Assembly: GCF_058153355.1 (NCBI RefSeq)
Contig: NZ_CM177019.1
Direction: 5' to 3' (one strand)
Length of the DNA stretch: 64,000 bases
Made by a program: the position numbers and the translations under genes. Below, piece by piece: positions 5,491 to 22,726 of this stretch (position 1 is its first letter; each line of letters opens with the position of its first letter). The notes under the pieces are model-generated. The model saw only the letters and a program-made list of their open reading frames with translations, did not search any database and had not been told where the DNA came from.

Positions 5491-6684
5491 CTAAAGCGCA
5501 CCGGCCTTCTGGCGTGCGGTAACAAAGGTCAGTACGCCAGCGCAAAGGAGCAGCACGCTACTCATAGCAAACGTGCTCTGCCAGCCAAGGCGGTCAAACA
5601 CAATGCCTCCTGCCGTTGATCCAAGGGCGATGGCGAGCTGAATCACCGCGACCATGAGCCCGCCTCCGGCTTCGGCGTTGTCAGGCAACGTACGCGCAAT
5701 CCATGTCCACCATCCGGTTGGCGCAGCGGTGGCCAGCATGCCCCAGAGCCCTAACAGCAACGAAACCGTCCAGACCAGATGCCCGGTCAGCATCAGGCCG
5801 ATGGCAATGACGGCCATAAGTCCGGGTATGGCCATCAGCGTGGGGTAGAATTTTCTGTTGAGAAATGCCGAAACAACCAGCGTGCCAATAAAACCGGCCA
5901 CGCCGATAATCAGCAAAATCAACGACAAGCCTAAGGAATTAACCCGTGTCACCGACTCCAGAAACGGGCGCACATAGGTGAATAGCGCAAACTGCCCCAT
6001 GAAAAACAGGCCACAAGCTATCATGCCGACCACAACCATGCGGCGGCTAAATAAGCGGAATACCGTGCCAAATGACGTGTGGCTTTTATTCGCATCCATA
6101 CTGGGCAGGCTGATGCACTGCCAGATAAAGGCGACCACCGCGATGGGCACCAGGCACAAGAAAGCGCCTCGCCATCCGACCGTGGCACCCAGATAGCTTC
6201 CCAGCGGCGCGGCCACGACCGTCGCCAGCGCATTACCGGCATTGAAAATCGCCAGCGCACGCGTGACCTGTTGCTGCGGCACCAGACGAATCGCCGTTGC
6301 CGCAGACATCGACCAGAATCCGCCAATCGCCACACCAATCATCGCGCGACCGATCATATACATCAGATAACTGGAAGCCAGCGCAATAATAAGCCCCGAT
6401 ACGGCCATCAGAACCGTCATCCCCAGCAGCAGGAACTTACGATTCATCTTTCCAGCTAGCGTTGAAAGCGTCAGGCTGGTCAGAACCGCCAGCGCGCCGG
6501 AGATAGCAATCCCCTGCCCTGCCAGCCCCTCCGTCACGCCTAAATCGCGGGCAATCGGCGTGAGCAGGCTGACGGGCATAAATTCAGAAGCAATCAGCAC
6601 AAACACGCACAGGGTCATGGCAAAAATACCGCCCCAGTATGCGCGCTGATGATGAGGTGATGGTGTTTGGTTTAGCGTCGACAT
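5491..6684 (-). CDS. MFS transporter (12-TM efflux/permease type)
   Basis: 397 aa highly hydrophobic protein with MFS-like repeated TM organisation and GxxxG-rich helices. Confidence 0.85.
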   Translation of the reverse strand: MSTLNQTPSPHHQRAYWGGIFAMTLCVFVLIASEFMPVSLLTPIARDLGVTEGLAGQGIAISGALAVLTSLTLSTLAGKMNRKFLLLGMTVLMAVSGLIIALASSYLMYMIGRAMIGVAIGGFWSMSAATAIRLVPQQQVTRALAIFNAGNALATVVAAPLGSYLGATVGWRGAFLCLVPIAVVAFIWQCISLPSMDANKSHTSFGTVFRLFSRRMVVVGMIACGLFFMGQFALFTYVRPFLESVTRVNSLGLSLILLIIGVAGFIGTLVVSAFLNRKFYPTLMAIPGLMAVIAIGLMLTGHLVWTVSLLLGLWGMLATAAPTGWWTWIARTLPDNAEAGGGLMVAVIQLAIALGSTAGGIVFDRLGWQSTFAMSSVLLLCAGVLTFVTARQKAGAL

Positions 6685-6759: not shown

Positions 6760-7896
6760 TTATTTCAGTTTGGTCTGGAAAAATTGTTCGAACTTCGCGA
6801 AAGGTATTTTTCCGGCAACGTTATCGTACAGATCCACGTGATTTGCCCCAGGAACCACTACCAGCTCTTTGTCTTTACTGCCGACCGCCTTATAAGCATC
6901 TTCAGCAAAATAGCGTGAATGCGCTTTCTCACCGGTCACGATAAGCGTCGGAATGGTGATTTCACTGGCGTAGCTGAGCAGCGGCATATTCATAAACGAC
7001 AGCGGCATCGTTGCCGTCCACGCCCCGGTCGAGTTCACGGATCGTGCATGAAAACCACGCGGCATACGATAGTAATCGAAGAACTCTTTCAGTACCGGAT
7101 GCGGATTTGCCGGCAGCGTTTCTGGCAGAATACGCTCGCCCGCACTGACCTTGCCGTTGCTGTCGACATTAATATCATGACCACCGTGAGCGAACGTTCC
7201 GCTCTGCGCATCCTTCCAGCGCTGTTCATTCAGATATTGCAGAACAGCACGACGGTCGGCGGTAGAATAACGGTCTTTGCCATCCCCCACACCATGGCCC
7301 ATCGCCCGGCTCATGTCATACATCACGCTGGTAGCTACCGCTTTAACGCGGGTATCCATCGCCGCGTCGTTCAGCGCCATGCCGCCCCAGCCACAAATAC
7401 CGAGCAGCCCGATACGGTTGCGATCTACCTCTTTTTGCAGCCCTAAGAAATCCACCGCCGCGCTGAAATCTTCAGTGTTGATATCCGGTGAGGCGACGTT
7501 TCGCGGATAGCCGCCGCTTTCCCCGGTGTAAGAAGGATCGAACGCCAGGGTAACAAACCCTCGTTCCGCCAGCGTCTGCGCATACAAGCCGCTGGATTGC
7601 TCTTTCACCGCGCCAAATGGCCCACTGACCGCAATCGCCGCCAGCTTGCGATCGCCACGGTCTTTAGGCAGGTAAAGATCGCCCACTAAGGTGATGCCAT
7701 ATCGGTTCGGGAACGAGACTTTACGGTGATCGACTTTCTGGCTCTCGGCGAACGTTTTATCCCATTTATCTGTCATGGACACAGGGGCATTAGGATTGGT
7801 TGAATCAGCATAACTCATTGTCGTGACTCCACTTAATGATGCGAAAAGCAGCATGGTCGGCATCGCGATTTTTAGCGTTCGGGTGAAGGCTTTCAT
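6760..7896 (-). CDS. Secreted dienelactone-hydrolase-family alpha/beta hydrolase (Cys nucleophile)
   Basis: Start moved to internal ATG (MKAFTRTLKIAMPTMLLFASLSG signal peptide); GICGWGG nucleophile elbow with Cys; paralogous to 11908-13772. Confidence 0.75.
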   Translation of the reverse strand: MKAFTRTLKIAMPTMLLFASLSGVTTMSYADSTNPNAPVSMTDKWDKTFAESQKVDHRKVSFPNRYGITLVGDLYLPKDRGDRKLAAIAVSGPFGAVKEQSSGLYAQTLAERGFVTLAFDPSYTGESGGYPRNVASPDINTEDFSAAVDFLGLQKEVDRNRIGLLGICGWGGMALNDAAMDTRVKAVATSVMYDMSRAMGHGVGDGKDRYSTADRRAVLQYLNEQRWKDAQSGTFAHGGHDINVDSNGKVSAGERILPETLPANPHPVLKEFFDYYRMPRGFHARSVNSTGAWTATMPLSFMNMPLLSYASEITIPTLIVTGEKAHSRYFAEDAYKAVGSKDKELVVVPGANHVDLYDNVAGKIPFAKFEQFFQTKLK

Positions 7897-8082
7897 AAAA
7901 ATCCCCATAAAAAACAACAGAGAGATACAGGTTTCCGACGGACAACACTGCGGTGCTTTACTTTGATGGGGTCATTATAGTGAGCAGAATTAGTGCTGAT
8001 TAGGGGGCGATTAATGCTAAGATTAATACCATATTGTTATAAATTAATGCGGAGATTGCCGGCATGAAGGGGGGATGTTTCA

Positions 8083-8967
8083 ATGGCGAAAAGGGAGAAC
8101 TACAACGAGCTGTACCTGTTTATGCAGGTGGTGCGGGAAGGCAGCTTTACCGCAGCGGCTCAGCGGCTGGGTCTTGCTCAGTCAGGAGTCAGCCGTTCTG
8201 TTCGCGAGCTTGAAGAAAGGCTCGGCGTCCAGCTGCTAGTGCGCACCACGCGTAAACTGTCGCTGACGCAAGCAGGCGAGCAGCTCTACCAGAAGACGGC
8301 ATCTGGATTTGAAATGTTAGATCTTGGGCTTGCCACACTGGCGCACTATCGAGAGACGCCCTCCGGCACGGTGCGTATCAATGCCAGCCAGCACGCGATT
8401 GATAAATGCCTGCTGCCAAAGCTGGCGGTATTTAAACAGCGATATCCTGATATCCGGCTTGAACTGATAAATGAGAGCCGGTTCGTCGATATCATCGAGG
8501 AAAGATTCGATGCTGGTGTCCGCCTGGGGCCTGAAGTCGGTCAGGGTATGGTCGCGGTACGCATCACGCCCGATATGGAGATGGCAATTGTGGGGACTCC
8601 GGAACATTTTCGTCGCTATGGTTTTCCGCAAACCCCGGCGGATTTAAAGGCGCATCCCTGTATCGCCTATCAGTTTGCCGACGGCAGCGTATACCAGTGG
8701 GAACTCAATCAGGATGATAAAAAAATCACTCATCGCCCTGAAGGGCAATGGGCCCTATCCGACAGCTATATGGAAGCAGAAGCCGCACGGCTGGGCCTCG
8801 GATTGGCCTATGTTCCTGTTGAACTGGTTGCGGATGATTTAGAACACGGTAAGCTTATCAGAGTGTTGCAGCGTTACAGCCTGCGAATGGAGGGATTGTT
8901 TCTCTATTACCCTCATCGCAACGTCTCCCCCGCTCTGCGGATGGTCATTGATACATTGAAAATCTGA
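8083..8967 (+). CDS. LysR-family transcriptional regulator
   Basis: 294 aa; N-terminal LysR HTH (FMQVVREGSFTAAAQRLGLAQSGVSRSVRELEERLGVQLL) plus substrate-binding domain. Confidence 0.85.
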   Translation: MAKRENYNELYLFMQVVREGSFTAAAQRLGLAQSGVSRSVRELEERLGVQLLVRTTRKLSLTQAGEQLYQKTASGFEMLDLGLATLAHYRETPSGTVRINASQHAIDKCLLPKLAVFKQRYPDIRLELINESRFVDIIEERFDAGVRLGPEVGQGMVAVRITPDMEMAIVGTPEHFRRYGFPQTPADLKAHPCIAYQFADGSVYQWELNQDDKKITHRPEGQWALSDSYMEAEAARLGLGLAYVPVELVADDLEHGKLIRVLQRYSLRMEGLFLYYPHRNVSPALRMVIDTLKI

Positions 8968-9177: not shown

Positions 9178-10305
9178 TTATGTCGGAAACCATCCGGGCG
9201 TCTTCTGAATCACTTGCCATAGTTTTTCAGGGATCGCCAATTCGTCTGAGTGTTGCGACAGGATAAGCGTGTTTTTTACCTTATCCTCATGGCCTGCCTG
9301 CACCAGCTCCATCCAGTTGGGATTCATGACAATCGTCCGGCCTATGGCAACCAGTGACAGTCCGGCCTCCAGAGACTGTTGAGCCGCTTGTGATGAAGTA
9401 ATTTTTCCCGCTGCCAGCAGAGGTAAACGCCCATTCAGCTGCTCTACAAACCGTGCCAGAATCGTATCCTTACCCTCACTACTCTGCGGCCGGTCGGTCA
9501 GTACGTCGTGGAGTGAGATATGGAGATAGTCAATGAGAGACTCTTTCTCTAACTGACCAGCCAGGGCCTGGGAGTCATTAATCCGTAATCCTCCGTCTCC
9601 TGACTCTTCCGGCGATAACCGGTAACCCAATAAAAAGGGTTTTCTGGCATGAGCTTCAATAACCCGCCGGACTTCCCGAACGACCTCCAGCGGGAAACGC
9701 ATACGGTTTGCTAATGAACCCCCCCATTCGTCAGTACGCAGGTTAAACCAGGGGGAGAAGAAGTTCTGGATAAGAAAACCATGCGCACCGTGCAATTCAA
9801 CACCATCAAAACCGGCCTCAATTGCGCGGCGAGTGGCTTCGCCGAAGTCATGGATCACACCAGAAATTTCGTCATGGTCCAAAGCCCGGCAGGCTTGTTC
9901 GCCACGATTAAAAGGGCCAGCCGGAGCGGCCAGGGCACTGGCGCTGACGATCTCCCCACCAGGGATGAGTTCGGGAACCGCTTTATTACCGGCATGAAAC
10001 AGTTGCAGAATTGCCAGCGCCCCCCCGCTTTTTGCTACATCAGCCAGTTTCCTCAGACTCGGGATAAAACGATCATCGTAGGCTGCGAATTCATTGGTGA
10101 AACCCACACCGTTTCTCTGAACATGAGCGCATCCCGTTATCACTAATCCCACACCGGTAGCGCGCGCCCGATAATAGTTTACTTCTTCATCTGAAATAGT
10201 TTCATCGTCATTAGCGGACCAGGTGGTCATCGGTGCCATAACGACGCGGTTACGCATCCTGAGACCATTTTTAAACGTGAAGGCCTGGGTTAATAAGTCA
10301 GTCAT
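9178..10305 (-). CDS. NADH:flavin oxidoreductase, Old Yellow Enzyme family
   Basis: 375 aa; OYE-like FMN-binding TIM barrel pattern (VMAPMTTW, LQLFHAG, GFDGVELHGAHGFL). Confidence 0.85.
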   Translation of the reverse strand: MTDLLTQAFTFKNGLRMRNRVVMAPMTTWSANDDETISDEEVNYYRARATGVGLVITGCAHVQRNGVGFTNEFAAYDDRFIPSLRKLADVAKSGGALAILQLFHAGNKAVPELIPGGEIVSASALAAPAGPFNRGEQACRALDHDEISGVIHDFGEATRRAIEAGFDGVELHGAHGFLIQNFFSPWFNLRTDEWGGSLANRMRFPLEVVREVRRVIEAHARKPFLLGYRLSPEESGDGGLRINDSQALAGQLEKESLIDYLHISLHDVLTDRPQSSEGKDTILARFVEQLNGRLPLLAAGKITSSQAAQQSLEAGLSLVAIGRTIVMNPNWMELVQAGHEDKVKNTLILSQHSDELAIPEKLWQVIQKTPGWFPT

Positions 10306-10344
10306 TGTACTCTCGATATTTAAAGCATCGGGTGCTTACACCCA

Positions 10345-11178
10345 TTAATCAAAATCGGTGGTATTACTCAGCGCAGCAAATTCGCGTATCTCTTTAATAC
10401 GGGCTTCCAGTGAAGGCATTACAAAACTGATAGCGTCATTTCCTATTAGGAGCTGTCGAGGTGGGTTCTTCATTTCAACCACCTGACAAACTACCAGTGC
10501 AAGTTTGGCAGGGTCCCCTTGCTGTTGACCATCTGCGGATGCCAGCAGCTCACGCACATCGCCATAATCGGCATAGTCCTCAATCTTTTTTTCGCCATAG
10601 TGTGCCGAACTATTACTGAGAAACTCTGTGCGGAAAAAACCGGGCTCAATCGCGGTGACATAAATACCAAGCGGGGCAACTTCATCGGCAAGTGCAAGCG
10701 TCATACCTTCAACGGCAAATTTCGATGCAGAATAGAATGTAGCGTTTGCGACCGCTTTAACACCCGCGATCGAGGACGTATTAATAATGCGTCCGCTACG
10801 CTGCTGGCGCATGACCGGTAAGACTGCGCGCAGCACATTGGCCATGCCGAACACGTTAGTGGCAAACTGCAGTTCTATTTGTTCAGCGGTTGCCTCTTCA
10901 AAACGCCCCAGCAGGCAGAATCCTGCGTTGTTAACCAGAACATCAATACGTCCGAAACGGCGAATAGCGGCATCCACGGCAACCCTGGCCTGCTGTTCAT
11001 CACGGACATCAAGCTCCAGCAGCTCAATATTTTCTTCAGAGGCCGTGCTGAATGTCCTGCGTAAGTTGTCCATATTACGCCCCGTTGCTACAACACGATC
11101 GCCCTGTTGCAAAGCGGCATTCACTATATCGGTCCCCATGCCGCGGGCAGCCCCGGTTACAAACCAAATACGACTCAT
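10345..11178 (-). CDS. Short-chain dehydrogenase/reductase (SDR)
   Basis: 277 aa; TGAARGMG cofactor-binding motif, NNAG, YSASK catalytic motif. Confidence 0.85.
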   Translation of the reverse strand: MSRIWFVTGAARGMGTDIVNAALQQGDRVVATGRNMDNLRRTFSTASEENIELLELDVRDEQQARVAVDAAIRRFGRIDVLVNNAGFCLLGRFEEATAEQIELQFATNVFGMANVLRAVLPVMRQQRSGRIINTSSIAGVKAVANATFYSASKFAVEGMTLALADEVAPLGIYVTAIEPGFFRTEFLSNSSAHYGEKKIEDYADYGDVRELLASADGQQQGDPAKLALVVCQVVEMKNPPRQLLIGNDAISFVMPSLEARIKEIREFAALSNTTDFD

Positions 11179-11250
11179 CTCAGTTCCCCCTGATAAGTTT
11201 ACTAACCCGTACTGCGATAAGGTCTGTACGGGTTTAATGGCATTTTTGAT

Positions 11251-11901
11251 TTACATAAAGTACGGCTTGTCGCCGTCGGTACCGGGCTGATTAACACCGA
11301 TATTTTCACCAATATGTTTTTCAGGTTTATCAATCATATCGGCGATTAATGCGGCGACGCTTTTGCGGGATACAACCGTGCCTTTGAACGGCTCATTGCG
11401 GGTAGTGAGTTCATAATCAATCGTATCTTCATCGGTCAGCCAGGCCGGACGCAGGATGGTGTAATCCAGCCCGGAGGCTTCAATCGCATCAGCCGCGCGG
11501 CGGAATGGCCTGAGCGGTTCGCCAATAATGGCGTTATTCCACTCGCCGAATTTTCCCGGGACTTCATCATAAATACCGAGCGAAAGGACGAAAATCAGAC
11601 GTCTTACGCCAGCGGCTTTCATCGCTGCAATCACCGCCTTCGCCTGAAGATCTAAATCCTCCCCGGTCAGATTGGCGTAAACCACATCCTGACCCACCAT
11701 GGCCTGTTCCAGTGCCGCATGGTTTAGCACATCGCCCATGATAATCCGGCTATTGGCCGGATGTGGTTTGTGTATTTTGACCGGCTGACGGGCAAATAAT
11801 GTCTGTGTGACGCCAGGTTTATCCGCCAGTTGATCGATAACATGGCGGGCAATCTGCCCGCTGGCACCAAGCACCAGGACTTTTTGAATGATGTTTTTCA
11901 C
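11251..11901 (-). CDS. NAD(P)H-binding (NmrA/atypical SDR-like) oxidoreductase
   Basis: 216 aa; N-terminal VLVLGASGQIARHV Rossmann motif. Confidence 0.7.
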   Translation of the reverse strand: MKNIIQKVLVLGASGQIARHVIDQLADKPGVTQTLFARQPVKIHKPHPANSRIIMGDVLNHAALEQAMVGQDVVYANLTGEDLDLQAKAVIAAMKAAGVRRLIFVLSLGIYDEVPGKFGEWNNAIIGEPLRPFRRAADAIEASGLDYTILRPAWLTDEDTIDYELTTRNEPFKGTVVSRKSVAALIADMIDKPEKHIGENIGVNQPGTDGDKPYFM

Positions 11902-11907
11902 AGGGCA

Positions 11908-12840
11908 TTACTCCAGGTGTGCGGCAAAGAACGGAAGCACTTTTGACATCGCTTCACGAACCGCTTCTGGATTGTCATACAGTTCGTAATGCGAATAATC
12001 GGCTAATGAGACCAGCTGACGGTCACGGGAAACTGCAGCCCGTCCATAGATTTCCAGACCATCACGGTAAGCTCCGAAAGCGCCCACTTTTTCGCCGACC
12101 ACCACCATCACCGGCTGAGTCAGCAATACTTCGGCAAAAGCAAAGGCATCCCAGGCCAGCGTTTTCTGCGCATGAGAGAACACCATTCGCGTTGCCCCGC
12201 CTGGCTGCTGGCCACGTGGCGTTTTGTAGTAGTCTGTTGCCTCAAATACGTCACGCTCAGTCAGTCCACTGGCCTTTGCCATTTCCGGGCTGGCGGGGAA
12301 CAGTTCATTAACCTGAACCTCTCCCCCGCGGGCTTCATTCGTACGCTGCGCCGCCATCGCACTCAGTGCACCAATAGGGTCGTAATTGCTGAAACCTTCG
12401 CGGAAAAGCCGGCCGATATTTACGCCGGTGATACTCACCACGGCTTTAATACGTTTCTCCGTCAGTGTGGCATTAATGGCATAACCACCGCCGCCGCAAA
12501 TACCCAGAACGCCAATCCGTTCAGCATCGACATACGGCAGAGTTACGGCGTAATCAATAACGCGACTGATATCTTCCACGCGCTGAGTCGGATCCTCCAC
12601 CCAGCGCGGGGAGCCGCCGGATTCCCCCTGGAAACTGGCGTCATAGGCGATCACAACATAGCCTGCTTCAGCCAGCGCTTTTCCGTAGACATTGCCGGAT
12701 GTCTGTTCCTTACAGCTGCCAAAAGGGTGGACGCTGATAATTGTCGGATACTGTTTTGTTTCATCAAACGCCGGTGGAAACTGAACGCTGGCAGCAATGT
12801 GCCAGGCCATATCGGCATTCTGAATTTGAACATGTTTCAT
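11908..12840 (-). CDS. Dienelactone hydrolase family protein (cytoplasmic paralog 1)
   Basis: 310 aa; GICGGGG Cys nucleophile elbow; start ATG overlaps stop of upstream paralog. Confidence 0.8.
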   Translation of the reverse strand: MKHVQIQNADMAWHIAASVQFPPAFDETKQYPTIISVHPFGSCKEQTSGNVYGKALAEAGYVVIAYDASFQGESGGSPRWVEDPTQRVEDISRVIDYAVTLPYVDAERIGVLGICGGGGYAINATLTEKRIKAVVSITGVNIGRLFREGFSNYDPIGALSAMAAQRTNEARGGEVQVNELFPASPEMAKASGLTERDVFEATDYYKTPRGQQPGGATRMVFSHAQKTLAWDAFAFAEVLLTQPVMVVVGEKVGAFGAYRDGLEIYGRAAVSRDRQLVSLADYSHYELYDNPEAVREAMSKVLPFFAAHLE

Positions 12841-13772
12841 TACAGTGTCTCCTCGAAGAATGGGGCTAATACGGAAACTGCTTCCGCGACGTATGCTTTA
12901 CCGTCATACAAGTCCATATGGTTGGCACCTTCAACAATGTGGTACCGCTTATCCTGGCTTGAGGCGCGATCGTACAGATCGTCGCTCATCCATTTACTTC
13001 CCGCCGCGCTACCCGCAACAATTTGCAGCGGCTGGGTCAGGTAAACCTCCGCCATTTGGTAAGCGTCATAGGTAATGATCTGATTGAGGCTTCGCAGCGT
13101 GGCGTATCCGGGGGCCGTCGGATACTGTGCCCGTGGCGTGTGGTAATACTCCCAGGCCTGACGCAACTCTTCATTTGGAGCATCAGACTCCTTCATGGGA
13201 GCCAGCGGCATGGTGGCATATTCACTGCCGCTGATATCGGTACTACGGGCATTTGAACCGGCTACAACATACGGCAGTGCATCAATGGATTTCACATTGT
13301 TTTCCCAGCCATTACGGAACATCGAGCCGATATTAACGGCACTGACCGTTCCGATGGCCTTGATGCGACGATCCTGAATCGCGGCATTGGCGGTATAGCC
13401 TGCACCGGCGCAAATTCCCATCGCGCCAATTTTCGCGCTGTCGACATAAGGCAGTGTGGTCAGGTAATCAATCACCGCACTGACATCTTCGGTACGGATG
13501 TACGGGTTTTCCAGCTGGCGCGGCTCTCCGCCACTTTCGCCCTGATAAGACGCATCATAAGCCACTGTCACAAACCCTTTTTCTGCCAGCTTTTCGGCAT
13601 AGGTTCCGGCAGTTTGTTCCTTAACGCCACCTCCCGGATGAGAGACCACAATAGCCGGGTACTTGAGGCTTTCATCAAATGCGGGTGGGAAGTAAAGCAC
13701 GGCGGACAAAGAGATTGTCGGGATATTGCTGTTGGTGAAACTGATTTTCTGGTTCATCATCCGGTTCCTCAT
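12840..13772 (-). CDS. Dienelactone hydrolase family protein (cytoplasmic paralog 2)
   Basis: 310 aa; GICAGAG Cys nucleophile elbow; tandem with 11908-12840. Confidence 0.8.
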   Translation of the reverse strand: MRNRMMNQKISFTNSNIPTISLSAVLYFPPAFDESLKYPAIVVSHPGGGVKEQTAGTYAEKLAEKGFVTVAYDASYQGESGGEPRQLENPYIRTEDVSAVIDYLTTLPYVDSAKIGAMGICAGAGYTANAAIQDRRIKAIGTVSAVNIGSMFRNGWENNVKSIDALPYVVAGSNARSTDISGSEYATMPLAPMKESDAPNEELRQAWEYYHTPRAQYPTAPGYATLRSLNQIITYDAYQMAEVYLTQPLQIVAGSAAGSKWMSDDLYDRASSQDKRYHIVEGANHMDLYDGKAYVAEAVSVLAPFFEETL

Positions 13773-13898
13773 TGGGCTGTCGGTTATCTGTCACGCTTGA
13801 TGGGATAACTATAGCCATTGATTATTAAGATGATTAGACCCAAAATAATGATTGGACTTATCATTTAAATGATTAATACATCGGGTGGGGACGCAGAA

Positions 13899-14798
13899 AT
13901 GAAACGCGATGAGATAGCAGATCTGATGGCATTCGTGGCCGTCGCTGAAGAGCGTAGTTTCACCCGGGCTGCCGCCCGTCTTGGTATGGCGCAGTCAGCG
14001 TTAAGCCAGATAGTGCGCCGTACAGAAGAGCGCCTGAATCTGCGGCTTCTGACGCGTACTACACGCAGCGTTGTTCCCACAGAAGCGGGTGAACACCTCT
14101 TGTCTGTTCTTGGCCCAATGCTGCATGACCTGGATTCCGCGCTGACTTCCCTGGGCGATCTTCGCGATCGCCCGTCCGGCACCATACGCATTACCACAGT
14201 GGAACATGCCGCAAAGACCATATTGCTTCCCGCCATGCGTACGCTGTTGAAATCCCATCCTGAAATTGATGTGCAGATCTTCATCGATTATGGCCTTACT
14301 GATGTCGTCTCAGAGCGCTTTGATGCCAGGGTTCGCCTGGGGGGAGAAATGGATAAGGATATGATTGCTGTTCGAATCGGGCCCGATATCCCGATGGCAA
14401 TTGTGGGTGCGCCGGAGTATCTCTCGCGAAGAGGTACCCCTGTGTCTGTGGCGCACCTGGTCGATCATCAGGCTATTAACCTGTACCTTCCTTCATCGGG
14501 CACCGCAAATCGCTGGAGATTAGTGCGCGGAGGGCGCGAAGTCAGGGTTCGCATGGAAGGACAACTTCTATTAAATACGATAGACCTGATCCTCGATGCC
14601 GCTATTGACGGGCACGGCCTCGCGTATCTGCCTTATGATCAGGTTCAGCAGGCTATTGTAGAAAAAAAACTGATCCGCGTTCTGGAGAAATTTACGCCAG
14701 ACTTACCAGGATATCACCTGTACTACCCACACCGCCGCCATGCGGGTTCGGCATTCTCTCTGTTAATTGATGTGCTGAAGTATAAAGGGGATGTTTAA
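13899..14798 (+). CDS. LysR-family transcriptional regulator
   Basis: Start moved to ATG at 13899 (MKRDEIADLMAFVAV..) with GGGG RBS; LysR HTH and effector domain; divergent from hydrolase operon. Confidence 0.85.
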   Translation: MKRDEIADLMAFVAVAEERSFTRAAARLGMAQSALSQIVRRTEERLNLRLLTRTTRSVVPTEAGEHLLSVLGPMLHDLDSALTSLGDLRDRPSGTIRITTVEHAAKTILLPAMRTLLKSHPEIDVQIFIDYGLTDVVSERFDARVRLGGEMDKDMIAVRIGPDIPMAIVGAPEYLSRRGTPVSVAHLVDHQAINLYLPSSGTANRWRLVRGGREVRVRMEGQLLLNTIDLILDAAIDGHGLAYLPYDQVQQAIVEKKLIRVLEKFTPDLPGYHLYYPHRRHAGSAFSLLIDVLKYKGDV

Positions 14799-14951
14799 CT
14801 ATTCTTTTTGATGGTGATTCCAGTCGTTCAGAGAGTACTAATACACCTTTGTGCAACGTCCGCTCCTGGCACAAAGCTGACCATCACCCTCCCTCCAAAT
14901 TAATGAACACATCTAATAAACCCTAGCTAATTACCCTATCTAATTGAATAA

Positions 14952-16867
<1,916 letters not shown>

Positions 16868-16891
16868 TACCCGGACGGGTCTACGGACCCG

Positions 16892-17824
<933 letters not shown>

Positions 17825-17933
17825 TCATGAAGGGTGTTCATAGACACAATCATTTTAGCCCCATTACTGACAATAATGATAATTGATATTCTGGTTGTAT
17901 CGAAAATAAGTCTGAATTATCAGAAGGTTTATC

Positions 17934-18707
17934 ATGAAAATACTCGTTGCAGGGGCGACAGGAAGCATTGGCCTTCATGTCGTGAATACCGCAATTAAAA
18001 TGGGCCATCAGCCCGTCGCGCTGGTCAGAAATAAACGCAAAGTAAAATTGCTTCCTCGTGAAACAGATGTTTTTTACGGCGATATTTCAATGCCGGAAAC
18101 ACTCACCGAATTACCGAAAGATATTGATGCCATCATCTTCACGCTCGGTTCTGATGTCCAGGGGCGTATTGGTGCCAGAGCGATCGATTACGGAGGAGTA
18201 CGTAATATTTTGCGAATATTCAAGGATACACCTGTCCATATCGCCCTGATGACCACGATTGGCGTGACTGAACGACTCAGCACCTGGAATCAACGTACTG
18301 AGGTTCATGACTGGAAAAGACGTGCCGAGCGTCTGGTCAGGGCAAGTGGTCATCCCTATACCATCGTCAGGCCCGGCTGGTTTGATTACAACAATGATAA
18401 TGAGCACAGAATCGTTATGCTTCAGGGAGACAGGCGTCATGCAGGAACACCGGAAGATGGTGTGATATCCCGGGGTCAAATCGCCCAGGTTCTGGTCAAT
18501 GCCCTGACCAACGATGAGGCAAAAAATAAAACGTTCGAGCTAGTGGCTGAGCGAGGCGAAGCACAGCAGGATCTTACCCCACTGTTTGCAGACCTGAAGA
18601 CTGATGATCCACAGAAAAATGATGGGGTTTTGGACATCGACAATATGTCTCTGCGTGAAGAACCTGAGTGCATTATCAAAGAGCTGAACCTGTATTCAAA
18701 AAATTAA
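17934..18707 (+). CDS. NAD(P)H-binding oxidoreductase (NmrA-like)
   Basis: 257 aa; MKILVAGATGSIGLHVV Rossmann motif. Confidence 0.75.
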   Translation: MKILVAGATGSIGLHVVNTAIKMGHQPVALVRNKRKVKLLPRETDVFYGDISMPETLTELPKDIDAIIFTLGSDVQGRIGARAIDYGGVRNILRIFKDTPVHIALMTTIGVTERLSTWNQRTEVHDWKRRAERLVRASGHPYTIVRPGWFDYNNDNEHRIVMLQGDRRHAGTPEDGVISRGQIAQVLVNALTNDEAKNKTFELVAERGEAQQDLTPLFADLKTDDPQKNDGVLDIDNMSLREEPECIIKELNLYSKN

Positions 18708-18848
18708 ACAATCTACAACCCTGACAATTTTGTCATATAGCAGTCAGCCTCATGACAGCTTAAGTCTGTATATTTGAATGTACAGAGGGGGATAGTTCCC
18801 CTGATACGAGCCCAGTTTCAAACACAAATTTTAAAAAAGGTATTAGAT

Positions 18849-19100
18849 ATGAAATCACTACTTATTACTTCATTGGTCATGGGATTTATTACAGTGAATA
18901 CCGCATCTGCCGCTCAGGAAATTAACCATGCAGATGGGAAAGAAAAGATCGGTGTAATATCAGCCAGCAATGCCTATACGCTTGATGATTTATCGAATGC
19001 GCTCTCTCGTAAGGCTGATGAGCAAGGAGCAACGTCGTTCAAAATTCTGTCAACCACGGGGAATAACCGGTTACACGGGGTTGCTGAAATATATAAGTAA
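18849..19100 (+). CDS. DUF1471 (YdgH/BhsA/McbA-family) small periplasmic stress protein
   Basis: Start moved to MKSLLITSLVMGFITVNTASA signal peptide; C-terminal GATSFKILSTTGNNRLHGVAEIYK matches the BhsA-type domain. Confidence 0.6.
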   Translation: MKSLLITSLVMGFITVNTASAAQEINHADGKEKIGVISASNAYTLDDLSNALSRKADEQGATSFKILSTTGNNRLHGVAEIYK

Positions 19101-19156
19101 ATCATTAGCATCCTGAGCAGGATGTGTCTCAGCCCTCTTATAGCGAGCGTCGTTCT

Positions 19157-19498
19157 ATGTTTAGAACAGAAGACATCATCGACGAGATAACTCAATGGAT
19201 TGATTCAAACTTACATAAACCGATGAAGATAGAGGATGTTGCTGCGCGGGCAGGATACTCCAAGTGGCATCTTCAGCGGATTTTTGTACAGGTAAAAGAA
19301 GTTAGTCTTGGGAAGTACATAAGAGATACGAAACTTAGACTAGCAGCAAAAGATCTTATCGAGACTAATGAGCCAGTGATGGTTATCGCCTTTAAATATG
19401 GATTCGATTCACAACAAACTTTTACTCGGGTTTTCTCTAAAAAATATAAATTGCCACCATTGAAATATAGAAACGCGGAAAAGAGAAAAAAACATTAA
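19157..19498 (+). CDS. AraC-family regulator of the MarA/SoxS/RamA type
   Basis: Start moved to ATG 19157; ~113 aa two-HTH protein (AARAGYSKWHLQRIF ... FKYGFDSQQTFTRVF). Confidence 0.7.
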   Translation: MFRTEDIIDEITQWIDSNLHKPMKIEDVAARAGYSKWHLQRIFVQVKEVSLGKYIRDTKLRLAAKDLIETNEPVMVIAFKYGFDSQQTFTRVFSKKYKLPPLKYRNAEKRKKH

Positions 19499-19878
19499 CA
19501 GTTCAAAGTTATCACCCTTACGTAACATAACCAGAATAATAATATATTCCAGCATCAAAAGTTGACGTTTTTTTGGTCTGGAAGCTTCTTGTTCGGAACA
19601 AAGCTCTGCCTGGTTTTTAACATACAATGTCTAGACCATGACCTTCAGCCATTACACATCAGCCAAAATATCGAACAGAACCAGATCGATATCCAATCAT
19701 TTCCCCCTCGTGGCAAGCCATTAACTTTTAGATATGTTATTTACTCTTGCAGTCGATTCATGGCACTCAGCAGACAAGCTACCTGAGATGAAGATCAGCT
19801 GCGAGTAAGGAGAAGACATAGACAGGAGGATGCTGATAATATTTCCCCATTGGATTACCGTTTCCAACAGGGGTATGA

Positions 19879-20436
19879 ATGGAATACCAAACTTCATTGC
19901 AGAAAATATTGTCAGATGACCCTGTGAGAATGAAGATTCTCTATGCAGTCCAAGCACTGGAACTCAATGATAGCTGGATTGGGGCGGGATTCGTACGGAA
20001 CGCTGTTTGGGATCACTTTCATGAATATGGGCTAAGCCCTGTTTCTGGTGATGTCGATGTTGTCTGGTTTGACTGCGAATACTGTAACCCAGACCATGAT
20101 CGTTACCTTGAAGACACGCTTAGGCAACAACTACCTTCGTTTGACTGGTCGGTGAAGAATCAAGCCAGAATGCATCAACGTAATGGTGATTCTCCCTATA
20201 CGTCAACGACAAATGCTTTACTGCACTGGCCTGAAACAGCTACGGCTGTAGCTGTCAGATTGGGTAAGAACGGTCTCGATATCACTGCGCCTTATGGACT
20301 TTCTGACTTATTTGAACTGCGTTTACGACCAACTCCTGCATTTGAACGTGAAAAGTTGGGTACTTTTAAACAACGGGTCACTACGAAGCAATGGTTGGAA
20401 CGTTATCCCAGGTTACAACTCACCGTTTCCTTATAA
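19879..20436 (+). CDS. Nucleotidyltransferase-family protein (DUF925-like)
   Basis: 185 aa; GAGFVRNAVWD ... GDVDVVWFD pattern typical of minimal Pol-beta-fold nucleotidyltransferases; assignment from memory. Confidence 0.5.
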   Translation: MEYQTSLQKILSDDPVRMKILYAVQALELNDSWIGAGFVRNAVWDHFHEYGLSPVSGDVDVVWFDCEYCNPDHDRYLEDTLRQQLPSFDWSVKNQARMHQRNGDSPYTSTTNALLHWPETATAVAVRLGKNGLDITAPYGLSDLFELRLRPTPAFEREKLGTFKQRVTTKQWLERYPRLQLTVSL

Positions 20437-20629
20437 TCTAGATATACAAATATCCCGGTTCTTGCGGTTCGATTGTCTGATTGACCGTTCGCACCAGACA
20501 TGAAGTGTACGGACTGACTGGCTGAGCAGTAGGTTTGCTATGAGCGTGGAGCAGACGTTAGTCTGAATACTCGATGATATACTTCACCACAGAAATATCC
20601 ATTTTATAAGAACCGATACTTTAATTACT

Positions 20630-20989
20630 TCATAAATCAGCACATTCTAGATTTCCAAGTTTCTGAATTACAGAATCTGGATTCGCACAGGCATACTCCA
20701 TGACACTTAACCAAACGATTTTTTGTTTCGGGAATCCGTTGTGGTAAAACTGATACCTCAGGCCGGGGGCACAGATGAGAAGAGCAGGATCTCGTGCCAT
20801 CAACATCTCAATGTCCGATTCAGTATCGTCAGCAAGAACACTCCAATCTAGCTGTAAACTATTCAGCTCACTTTGAAGAGCCTGAATGTATTTCTCAGTT
20901 AGAGAATATGGGAAATAGCCTCTAAGCAATGGCGAACGGCCTAGTGTAGGGCTGGGGCTATGGATAAAGTAAACGACCTTATTTGTCAT
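20630..20989 (-). CDS. Hypothetical protein, possible degenerate PTS EIIB (lactose/cellobiose type)-like fold
   Basis: 119 aa with perfect AAGGAG RBS; weak resemblance to ChbB-type EIIB but lacks the active-site Cys. Confidence 0.3.
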   Translation of the reverse strand: MTNKVVYFIHSPSPTLGRSPLLRGYFPYSLTEKYIQALQSELNSLQLDWSVLADDTESDIEMLMARDPALLICAPGLRYQFYHNGFPKQKIVWLSVMEYACANPDSVIQKLGNLECADL

Positions 20990-21292
20990 TGTTCTCCTTG
21001 TTTATGTTTATACAGCTATTAGTTGGTAACGAACTAACGGTTTGCCTCTACTTTCAGTGCTTTGGCGAACAATATTATATCTCATGTAAAAAGTATAACT
21101 TTTAGCCAATTGATATGCCAACGTCCACTCCTGGCACTAAGCAGGCTGTCAGACGAAAGTGTAACGTTTCAAAAGTAAGCGTAAATGCAAATCAGTACAA
21201 AAAAAATTACTGTGGTTGAACTCCTCCAGAACGGAGGAGCTAAGCTTTAGATTTCACGCTACCTACTGATAAGAACCAATTTAAGGTTCGTA

Positions 21293-22488
21293 TCATAAGG
21301 CCATGATTACTTTATATTTTCCAATGTTATCAATATAATCCGCATACCACTGCATCATCTCCCTACGTCCTTCCAAATACAACGCATGGTTATACGTCCC
21401 ACGAATCGCATTCTTATCAACGTGAGCCAGCTGGGTTTCAATCCACGCTGTATTGAACCCTTCCTCATGCAAAATCGTACTCATCGTGTGGCGGAAACCA
21501 TGCCCCGTGACCCTCCCCGTGTATCCAATCCGCTTAAACACCTGATTAATACTCGCTTCGCTCATTGTTTTGCGAGGGTCATTCCTCCCAGGAAACACTA
21601 GGGGATACTGTCCAGACATCACTTTGAGTTGCTGTACGATTTCCAGCGCTTGGGTAGAGAGGGGCACCAGATGAGACCGTTTCATCTTCATACGCTCTGC
21701 AGGTATTTCCCACACCGCTTTTTCAAGATCAAACTCACTCCAGAAAGCACCTCGAAGCTCGCCGGTGCGAACTCCCGTAAGGATCAGCAGCCGAGCGGCA
21801 AGAACAACTAGCGGGCTTCCTGTATAGCTGGATAGGGCTTTAAAGAAGTCTGGTAACTCTTCAACAGTCAGGAAGGGATATGTTTCGATTCATGCCCTGA
21901 CATCGCGCTGGTTATATCCGCGGCAGGATTGTATTCCGCACGACCAGTAACTATGGCGTAACGAAAGACTTCGCTGCAGCGCTGGCGAACCTTTTTGGCC
22001 TTCTCTGTCGCGCCACGGCTTTCCATTCGACGTAGCACATTAAGCAGAACCAGCGGTTTGATTTCATTCACCGGCAGTTGACCGATATAGGGGAAAATAT
22101 CTTTATTAAAGGCCTCCAGAATGTCAGAAGCATACCCTTCTGACCACCGGCTCACCTTCGTACCGTGCCATTCAAGCGCCACAGCCTGAAACGTATTATT
22201 GAGTTGCACATCGCGAACCAGCTTTTCTTCTTTCTTGGCGAAAGACGGATCGATGCCCTCGGCCAGCTTTTTCTTGGCTTCATCGCGTAGTGCCCTCGCT
22301 TGTACAAGGGACACTGCTGGATAGACACTAAAAGCCATACGCTTCTCTTTTCCATAGAAGCGATACTTCATCCGCCAGTATCTGGAACCAGGGGGAACAA
22401 CCTCAAGATACAAACCAGCACCATCCGCCAGCTTATAGGCTTTCTCTCTGGGTTTAGCAGCGTCTACCTGTCGTGCATTAAGCTTCAT
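21293..22488 (-). pseudogene. P4-type tyrosine integrase, disrupted (N-terminal and catalytic parts in different frames)
   Basis: N-terminal ORF 21868-22488 (DUF4102/SAM-like arm-binding) and C-terminal ORF 21293-21715 (HGFRHT, LAH, Y catalytic residues) separated by a frame break; adjacent to tRNA-Thr 3-prime end. Confidence 0.7.
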
Positions 22489-22650
22489 TGGGGCATCTCC
22501 CTGGACCGAACATAGAATCCCCCCACTAATGCCCCCAACTGCAACTTGATTTCGGTTGAGTCCAGTTGATAACAGGAGACAAGATACGAGCCAGAAACCA
22601 CAGTGTACGGGCTTTTAGTTGATTTCGGTAGACTTGGGAAGAGTTTGAAA

Positions 22651-22726
22651 TGGTGCCGATAATAGGAGTCGAACCTACGACCTTCGCATTACGAATGCGC
22701 TGCTCTACCAACTGAGCTATATCGGC
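22651..22726 (-). tRNA. thrW: tRNA-Thr (anticodon CGU)
   Basis: 76-nt cloverleaf GCCGATATAGCTCAGTTGGTAGAGCAGCGCATTCGTAATGCGAAGGTCGTAGGTTCGACTCCTATTATCGGCACCA read on minus strand; CCA end faces integrase. Confidence 0.9.

Follow-up and report, generated by a model that had tools for sequence, protein, structure and literature searches.

Tandem YcjY-family cysteine hydrolases in a mobile reductase module, and a separately inherited relative with a predicted signal peptide

The α/β hydrolase YcjY of Escherichia coli (b1327; PDB 5XB6) is encoded in the ycjY-ymjD-ymjC operon, which is listed in the regulon of the LysR-type regulator PgrR (YcjZ; PMC5934670), and is related to PA2218 of Pseudomonas aeruginosa (PDB 2HDW). 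A literature search on 5XB6, 2HDW and PA2218 found nothing relevant, and the mentions of ycjY were restricted to lists or screens. Here, we analyzed a 64,000-nucleotide stretch of contig NZ_CM177019.1 (RefSeq assembly GCF_058153355.1; hereafter the window), in which two adjacent minus-strand genes, A (open reading frame (ORF) 12840-13772) and B (11908-12840), each encode a 310-residue hydrolase. A third minus-strand gene, C (6760-7896, 378 residues including a signal peptide), encodes a predicted exported PA2218-like paralog. A sequence-only reading of the window had taken these proteins for dienelactone hydrolases with cysteine nucleophiles, serving one dedicated catabolic or detoxifying pathway from different compartments. 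Genes A and B instead encode widespread, already catalogued Cys-type α/β hydrolases of the YcjY family (COG1073-type), which are not true dienelactone hydrolases, and together with a divergent LysR gene and an NmrA-like reductase gene they form a conserved, mobile four-gene module.

The product of gene A is a YcjY ortholog, sharing 93% identity with the E. coli protein over 306 of 306 residues (E = 1.6e-188), and that of gene B is a YcjY paralog matching 5XB6 with E = 6e-68 and PA2218 with E = 3e-37. The A and B proteins are 42-43% identical to each other, and B is 32% identical to C. With E-values of the matches to YcjY and PA2218 spanning 1e-37 to 1e-188, the paralogy of the three proteins, as judged from sequence comparison, is far beyond chance. 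The direct 2HDW matches come from A, B and the family profile (E = 6.6e-99), and C was likened to PA2218 by its sequence signatures. In a family alignment of 66 sequences, comprising 63 full-length representatives (50% clustering) plus A, B and C, the motif columns are 89-100% conserved, and the motifs HP.G..KEQ (with GP for HP in C), D.S.QGES.G.PR, G-I-C-x-G-G and H.DLYD are present in all three window proteins. Their fold also agrees with membership in the YcjY/PA2218 family, including a lid of ~100 residues inserted between strands b6 and b7 in the gene B model. In the structure comparison, the highest values were obtained with 5XB6 (44) and 2HDW (39), followed by the DcsB thioesterase 7D78 (34), 7QJM (34), GrgF 6LZH (32), monoacylglycerol lipases and feruloyl esterases (about 27), and the solved dienelactone hydrolases 2O2G and 3F67 (about 22). 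This ranking therefore identifies lidded YcjY/PA2218-family hydrolases rather than strict dienelactone hydrolases.

Pfam searches returned a scatter of weak α/β hydrolase matches (Peptidase_S15, Abhydrolase_1, Hydrolase_4, DLH, PETase and S9), with Peptidase_S15 at the top. The DLH family (PF01738, EC 3.1.1.45) scored 29.8, 38.0 and 21.2 bits with the three proteins, above its gathering score of 21, but only about positions 11-129 of the 217-position profile are matched, and the scores of several other families are equal or higher. Characterized dienelactone hydrolases such as ClcD and TfdE likewise combine an α/β fold with a Cys in a G-x-C-x-G elbow and a His after the last strand, and the thioester acyl-enzyme of these hydrolases would be the expected intermediate for A and B by analogy. 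Dienelactone hydrolase works with maleylacetate reductase in an established pathway, which the pairing of a hydrolase with a reductase at this locus resembles. Nevertheless, it is very improbable that the three proteins are genuine dienelactone hydrolases of the carboxymethylenebutenolidase type (Cys-His-Asp), forming compartmentalized copies in a dedicated lactone or chloroaromatic pathway. They contain the long lid and lack the canonical Asp of the Cys-His-Asp triad, no dioxygenase, cycloisomerase or maleylacetate reductase gene lies nearby in the window, and gene C belongs to a different, separately inherited unit. Thus, the label "dienelactone hydrolase" is misleading for the YcjY family.

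The top NCBIfam match for all three proteins was NF047920, the UilS family lactonase (E-values from 2e-18 to 3e-24), full length for B and in two stretches for A and C. UilS from Serratia marcescens is a cytoplasmic α/β hydrolase of similar size, which degrades N-acyl-homoserine lactones and had likewise been given a dienelactone hydrolase annotation (PMC11633161). A quorum-quenching lactonase function of this kind appears improbable for the window proteins, since their scores (73.1, 86.1 and 67.1 bits) are a fifth of the equivalog cut-off of 400, which indicates a different subfamily. Serratia carries the A-B module besides uilS, UilS itself has no tandem partner or reductase module, and a lactonase would leave the reductase partners of A and B unexplained. 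The published description of UilS states neither the nucleophile nor the other active-site residues (PMC11633161).

In the gene B model, which has a predicted local distance difference test (pLDDT) score of 96.9, strand b5 (104-114) and helix aC (116-127) are separated by C115 alone, at the nucleophile elbow, and H284 directly follows strand b8 (274-283). When aligned with HMMER to the solved serine hydrolases 8YZN, 7QJM, 9PJB and 8B4U, the Cys coincides with the GxSxG Ser and the His with their catalytic His. The elbow sequences are GICAGAG in A (Cys117 in the 306-residue numbering), GICGGGG in B and GICGWGG in C, and the His residues lie in HMDLYD in A (His281) and HVDLYD in C. The sequence-only reading was therefore right about the three GxCxG-type elbows and about the Cys occupying the nucleophile position. 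Family-wide, the elbow Cys is present in 59 and the His after b8 in 61 of the 66 aligned sequences. The GESGG sequence after b4 was considered as an alternative nucleophile site and rejected, as it sits in the b4-aB loop and not in the b5-aC elbow, and represents a usual non-catalytic motif.

Mapping of the catalytic triad onto the three paralogs thus succeeded for Cys and His and failed for the acid. The canonical Asp after b7 was not found in A, B or C, whose acid column contains Gly, Gly and His, respectively, and the post-b7 loop of gene B reads VGAFG. Position 141, located after b6, is Asp, Asn or Cys in 62 of the 66 sequences, with Asn in A and B (Asn141) and Asp in C. This post-b6 position is an alternative acid site known from pancreatic-type lipases. 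Among the 54 family members with both Cys and His, 23 retain the canonical post-b7 carboxylate, 15 have a carboxylate solely at the post-b6 site, and 12, including A and B, have merely an Asn there. When a third triad residue was sought in the 66-sequence alignment, no acidic column after b7 proved to be conserved, and the post-b6 and post-b7 sites were not anti-correlated; the residue two positions after the catalytic His is Asp or Glu in 51 of these sequences. From the alignment and the model, Asn (A and B) or Asp (C) at position 141 appears to be the best candidate to orient the His. Many family members, YcjY among them, have no carboxylate at either of the known triad positions, which poses a small question of enzymology.

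The family alignment also revealed conserved K44-E45-Q46, D67 and S74, as well as the arginines Arg79, Arg130, Arg147 and Arg166. These residues hint at a polar, possibly carboxylate-binding pocket and an anionic substrate. The B-type proteins contain an additional conserved Cys43 in the loop after strand 3 (HPFGSCKEQ), where the A- and C-types have Val; the same Cys is present in the E. coli O157-type (P0172) and Afipia proteins and in P0002 and P0003. From its predicted position in the oxyanion-loop region, a redox role or a second catalytic role of Cys43 is conceivable.

An acyl-enzyme on the Cys could also be resolved by an alcohol or a carbon nucleophile, which would make A and B acyl-transferring enzymes of the ester/polyester synthase or thioesterase/cyclase type. 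The fungal polyketide α/β hydrolases DcsB (7D78) and GrgF (6LZH), which rank high in the structure comparison, use a Ser nucleophile, are just 19-20% identical to B, and come from eukaryotic polyketide clusters; a literature search on DcsB found no relevant paper. No genes for carrier proteins, polyketide synthases, CoA-ligases or polyhydroxyalkanoate synthesis were present in the E. coli O157, Klebsiella plasmid, Afipia, Serratia and Labilithrix loci. YcjY has been suggested as a polymerase of complexed polyhydroxybutyrate (cPHB), a motif-based prediction without data (PMC3709699). Taken together, acyl transfer is the least probable of the functions considered.

Genes A and B overlap, as the sequence-only reading had observed, by one base. 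Their junction reads ...GAGGAGACACTGTAATGAAA / GAGGAGACACTGTAATG, with base 12840 common to the TAA of A and the ATG of B (TAATG). A strong Shine-Dalgarno sequence, GAGGAG, lies 7-8 nt upstream of the gene B ATG, which together with the overlap makes translational coupling credible. The same one-base overlap was found in E. coli O157, E. coli C8, the Klebsiella plasmid and Serratia. The true start of gene A is most likely the ATG at 13760 (MMNQK..., 306 residues), four codons inside the ORF, because E. coli YcjY starts likewise and AGGA is located just upstream of this ATG.

The third module gene (11251-11901, minus strand) is the ymjC ortholog and encodes an NmrA-like NAD(P)H-binding reductase (Pfam NAD_binding_10, 2e-57; PDB 3QVO, annotated as "NmrA family protein", E = 9e-121). 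The fourth, divergent gene (13869-14798, plus strand; probable start 13899, 299 residues) encodes a PgrR-like LysR regulator with HTH_1 and LysR_substrate domains, which shares 88% identity with E. coli PgrR and 96% with the plasmid copy; a gene with these two domains occupies the same position in all related loci examined. This arrangement reproduces that of the YcjY operon of E. coli O157, with the divergent LysR gene, an intergenic region of ~138 bp and the A/B overlap shared by the window copy. Scans of the operon and intergenic regions for promoters, terminators and inverted repeats found nothing above the shuffled expectation except AT-rich palindromes in the style of LysR boxes. Both hydrolase/LysR intergenic regions, 13773-13898 and 7918-8082, are AT-rich with repeated ATTAAT/ATCATT palindromes that are possible LysR boxes; examples are ATTAAT, present three times at 8010-8048, and AATGAT-N7-ATCATT at 13847-13865.

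The module recurs in distant genomes. Afipia carboxidovorans has the divergent LysR gene followed by A, B and the NmrA-like reductase gene, and in Serratia marcescens this set is extended by two short-chain dehydrogenase/reductase (SDR) genes, a flavodoxin-like gene and an old yellow enzyme (OYE) gene. A Labilithrix metagenome-assembled genome combines LysR, A, B and the NmrA-like gene with a flavodoxin-like gene. The copy on a Klebsiella IncF plasmid (LysR, A, B, NmrA-like) adjoins an IS110 element, and that in Sphingobium (LysR, A, B) adjoins an integrase gene. The set of LysR, A, B and NmrA-like genes is also present in E. coli O157, whose native locus has A, B and an SDR gene followed by mpaA, with pgrR and mppA on the divergent side. 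Between the window and Afipia, protein identity is 74% for LysR, 79.5% for A, 80% for B and 68% for the reductase; overall, the window proteins are 68-82% identical to alphaproteobacterial proteins despite a GC content of 0.53 in the window versus 0.62. The A and B proteins are 41-46% identical in every genome compared, and this constant divergence indicates that the duplication is old and that the two genes have been inherited together under strong constraint. A distant A-like/B-like tandem with 38% mutual identity is present in GCA_023704295.1 (locus L013, 3986-6850), where it is followed by a Lactamase_B (metallo-β-lactamase-fold) gene and no reductase gene, demonstrating that the tandem is older than the proteobacterial module. 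Elsewhere, an A-like singleton is followed by a nitroreductase gene, and a B-like singleton without partners also exists.

E. coli K-12 retains ycjY together with the stumps ymjD (21 residues) and ymjC (60 residues), both at locus L004, 6681-6934. The B and NmrA-like genes of the window are the intact forms of these remnants, with gene B representing the partner that K-12 has lost. As a discovery this adds little, because the genes have catalogued orthologs in E. coli and two of the three module enzymes already have crystal structures (5XB6 and 3QVO). It does reveal K-12 ycjY as the stump of a four-gene module moving between Enterobacteria, Alphaproteobacteria and one myxobacterial genome, and the search for its function should therefore use the intact module and not K-12. 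In E. coli, the segment containing B and the reductase gene is prone to deletion: 1248 of 5426 complete genomes cover at least 80% of the 4-kb query. In one Logan contig (P0207), B without its last ~12 residues is fused in frame to a reductase without its Rossmann N-terminus. We considered this fusion as evidence of functional coupling and rejected it, because it is an in-frame deletion that has removed the B C-terminus and the reductase Rossmann N-terminus.

The E. coli chromosome also provides the case for a role in the recycling of murein peptides, in which A and B would act as peptidases or amidases on peptidoglycan-derived peptides within the PgrR regulon. There, the ycjY-(B)-(SDR)-mpaA operon adjoins ycjG and mppA, PgrR has been described as a regulator of peptidoglycan-peptide recycling (PMC5934670), and overexpression of YcjY causes filamentation, which points to cell-wall peptides (PMC3614548). 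This is in line with the top Pfam match to Peptidase_S15 and with additional S9 and DPP matches. The window copy shares with the PgrR regulon the divergent PgrR-type LysR gene and an operon beginning with ycjY, but not the linkage to mpaA, ycjG and mppA. These three genes were found neither around the window copy nor around the plasmid, Serratia, Afipia, Sphingobium and Labilithrix copies, and murein-peptide genes adjoin the A-B pair only on the E. coli chromosome. Moreover, the peptidase-family matches are confined to the N-terminal half of the fold, which is generic, and the sole constant partners of the pair are the LysR regulator and NAD(P)H-dependent reductases, which have no role in peptide hydrolysis. 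We therefore regard a peptidase function as unlikely, though less so than a lactonase or dienelactone hydrolase function.

The reductases encoded next to the module and its relatives include NmrA-like, SDR, Flavodoxin_4, OYE and nitroreductase proteins. Because reductases are the constant partners of the pair and murein-peptide genes are restricted to the E. coli chromosome, we tentatively favor the hydrolysis of an electrophilic small molecule by A and B via a Cys thioester acyl-enzyme, a possibility that falls clearly short of an even chance. In this mechanism, a Cys-His ion pair would attack the carbonyl of an ester, lactone or thioester, and the resulting acyl-thioester enzyme intermediate would be hydrolyzed by water, with Asn141 (A and B) or Asp141 (C) assisting the catalytic His. 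A, B and the NmrA-like reductase are translated from one mRNA under the control of the divergent PgrR-like LysR regulator, and in the window the genes for the classical SDR and the OYE flavin reductase come next. The pair would supply the hydrolytic step in the detoxification or degradation of a compound that is electrophilic and probably bears a carboxylate, for example an unsaturated lactone, an enone or a quinone, and the neighboring reductases would handle the redox steps. The carboxylesterase MhqD in a staphylococcal quinone-resistance operon provides an analogy (PMC6798810).

Several observations weigh against this proposal, beginning with the regulatory link to peptidoglycan recycling and the filamentation phenotype described above. 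No close relative has a demonstrated substrate, as YcjY and PA2218 are structural-genomics entries. The function is dispensable in E. coli, where ~77% of the complete genomes lack an intact B gene and reductase gene. The reductase neighbors are generic and may reflect the composition of the island rather than a pathway, and the third triad residue and the pocket are deduced from sequence and secondary structure alone. With these points taken into account, we give about even credence to the overall explanation that A and B are Cys-His hydrolases of ancient origin, inherited as a pair, that perform an electrophile detoxification step within a mobile reductase module. A more far-reaching version is unlikely: A and B would form an obligate hetero-oligomeric Cys hydrolase with a non-canonical Cys-His-Asn center (papain-like chemistry on an α/β hydrolase scaffold), the carboxylate having been lost from both known acid positions in this clade, and together with the NmrA-like reductase they would make up a previously undescribed module that spreads horizontally and detoxifies an electrophilic natural product.

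Gene C contains the GICGWGG elbow, the catalytic His, Asp at the post-b6 site and His at the canonical acid site. Translation from the ATG at 7896 gives the N-terminus MKAFTRTLKIAMPTMLLFASLSGVTTMSYA/DS, where the slash marks the predicted cleavage. The leader has a basic n-region, a hydrophobic core averaging 2.0 on the Kyte-Doolittle scale across 10 residues, and the cleavage motif S-Y-A, and by this heuristic reading it resembles a typical Sec-type signal peptide, consistent with the signal peptide proposed in the sequence-only reading. Among N-extended relatives, many have a Sec, Tat or lipoprotein signal in front of this same mature N-terminus (WDKTF..VDHRKVS). The Prokaryotic Genome Annotation Pipeline (PGAP) places the start of the ortholog from one E. 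coli strain at Met27, which would remove the signal. With PA2218, gene C shares the N-terminal extension, the GICGWGG elbow, TS.MYDM after b6, the GE(K/R)AHSRYF loop and H.DLYD, with TS.MYDM and AHSRYF representing subfamily signatures.

The two differ in setting, as gene C adjoins a major facilitator superfamily (MFS) transporter gene and a LysR gene beside paoD. The transporter gene is located downstream (5491-6684, minus strand; NCBIfam NepI-like, 1e-87, below the cut-off) and the LysR gene is divergent (8083-8967, plus strand), in agreement with the earlier observation of LysR genes next to the hydrolases. E. coli strains and a metagenome contig share the LysR-MFS-C arrangement; the gene C unit is ~97% similar to E. 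coli chromosomes, and the paoD-MFS-C-LysR stretch 97-98%. Because LysR and MFS genes repeatedly accompany exported hydrolases of the C type, gene C belongs to a separately inherited LysR-MFS-hydrolase unit, apart from the A/B module, in which it would function as a periplasmic relative. The idea of three copies serving one dedicated pathway was therefore abandoned.

The flanks are Escherichia-like, with a 25-kb query including paoABCD showing ~95% identity to E. coli over the aligned 58%. In contrast, the segment 11227-14882 (reductase, B, A and LysR) is only ~80% identical at the DNA level to the native E. coli ycjY locus, but 91-93% identical to the counterparts carried by Klebsiella IncF plasmids and by E. 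coli C8; overall, the module is 91-96% similar to such copies. The window copy is located near thrW instead of beside mpaA, and is followed by two accessory genes encoding a classical SDR oxidoreductase (10345-11178, minus strand; Pfam adh_short, 3.5e-53; same order in E. coli C8 and Serratia) and an OYE-type NADH:flavin oxidoreductase (9178-10305, minus strand; Pfam Oxidored_FMN, 1.6e-78; likewise part of the operon-like array in C8 and Serratia). Next to thrW, the tRNA-Thr(CGU) gene (22651-22726, minus strand), is a truncated integrase ORF of the phage type (21868-22488, minus strand), and the GC content falls to 0.43-0.45 at 18-22 kb, a stretch that includes an NTP_transf_6 gene (19879-20436). 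Region 18000-22726 has the appearance of a degenerate island terminus, with thrW as the integration site, and thrW, the truncated integrase and the low-GC stretch place the module in a variable island region. The copy in the window, which lies in the variable region near thrW, is a second version of the E. coli ycjY operon that was acquired laterally.

Oxidoreductase genes are unusually dense in the interval 9178-18707, which includes the OYE, SDR and NmrA-like genes, two aldo-keto reductase genes (14958-15851 and 15878-16867) and a second NmrA-like gene (17934-18707). Three YafC/PgrR-like LysR regulators, at 8083-8967, 13869-14798 and 16892-17824, are interleaved with them. In another E. coli strain, the block of two aldo-keto reductase genes and a LysR gene is located beyond the ecp/pao region, implying a rearrangement.

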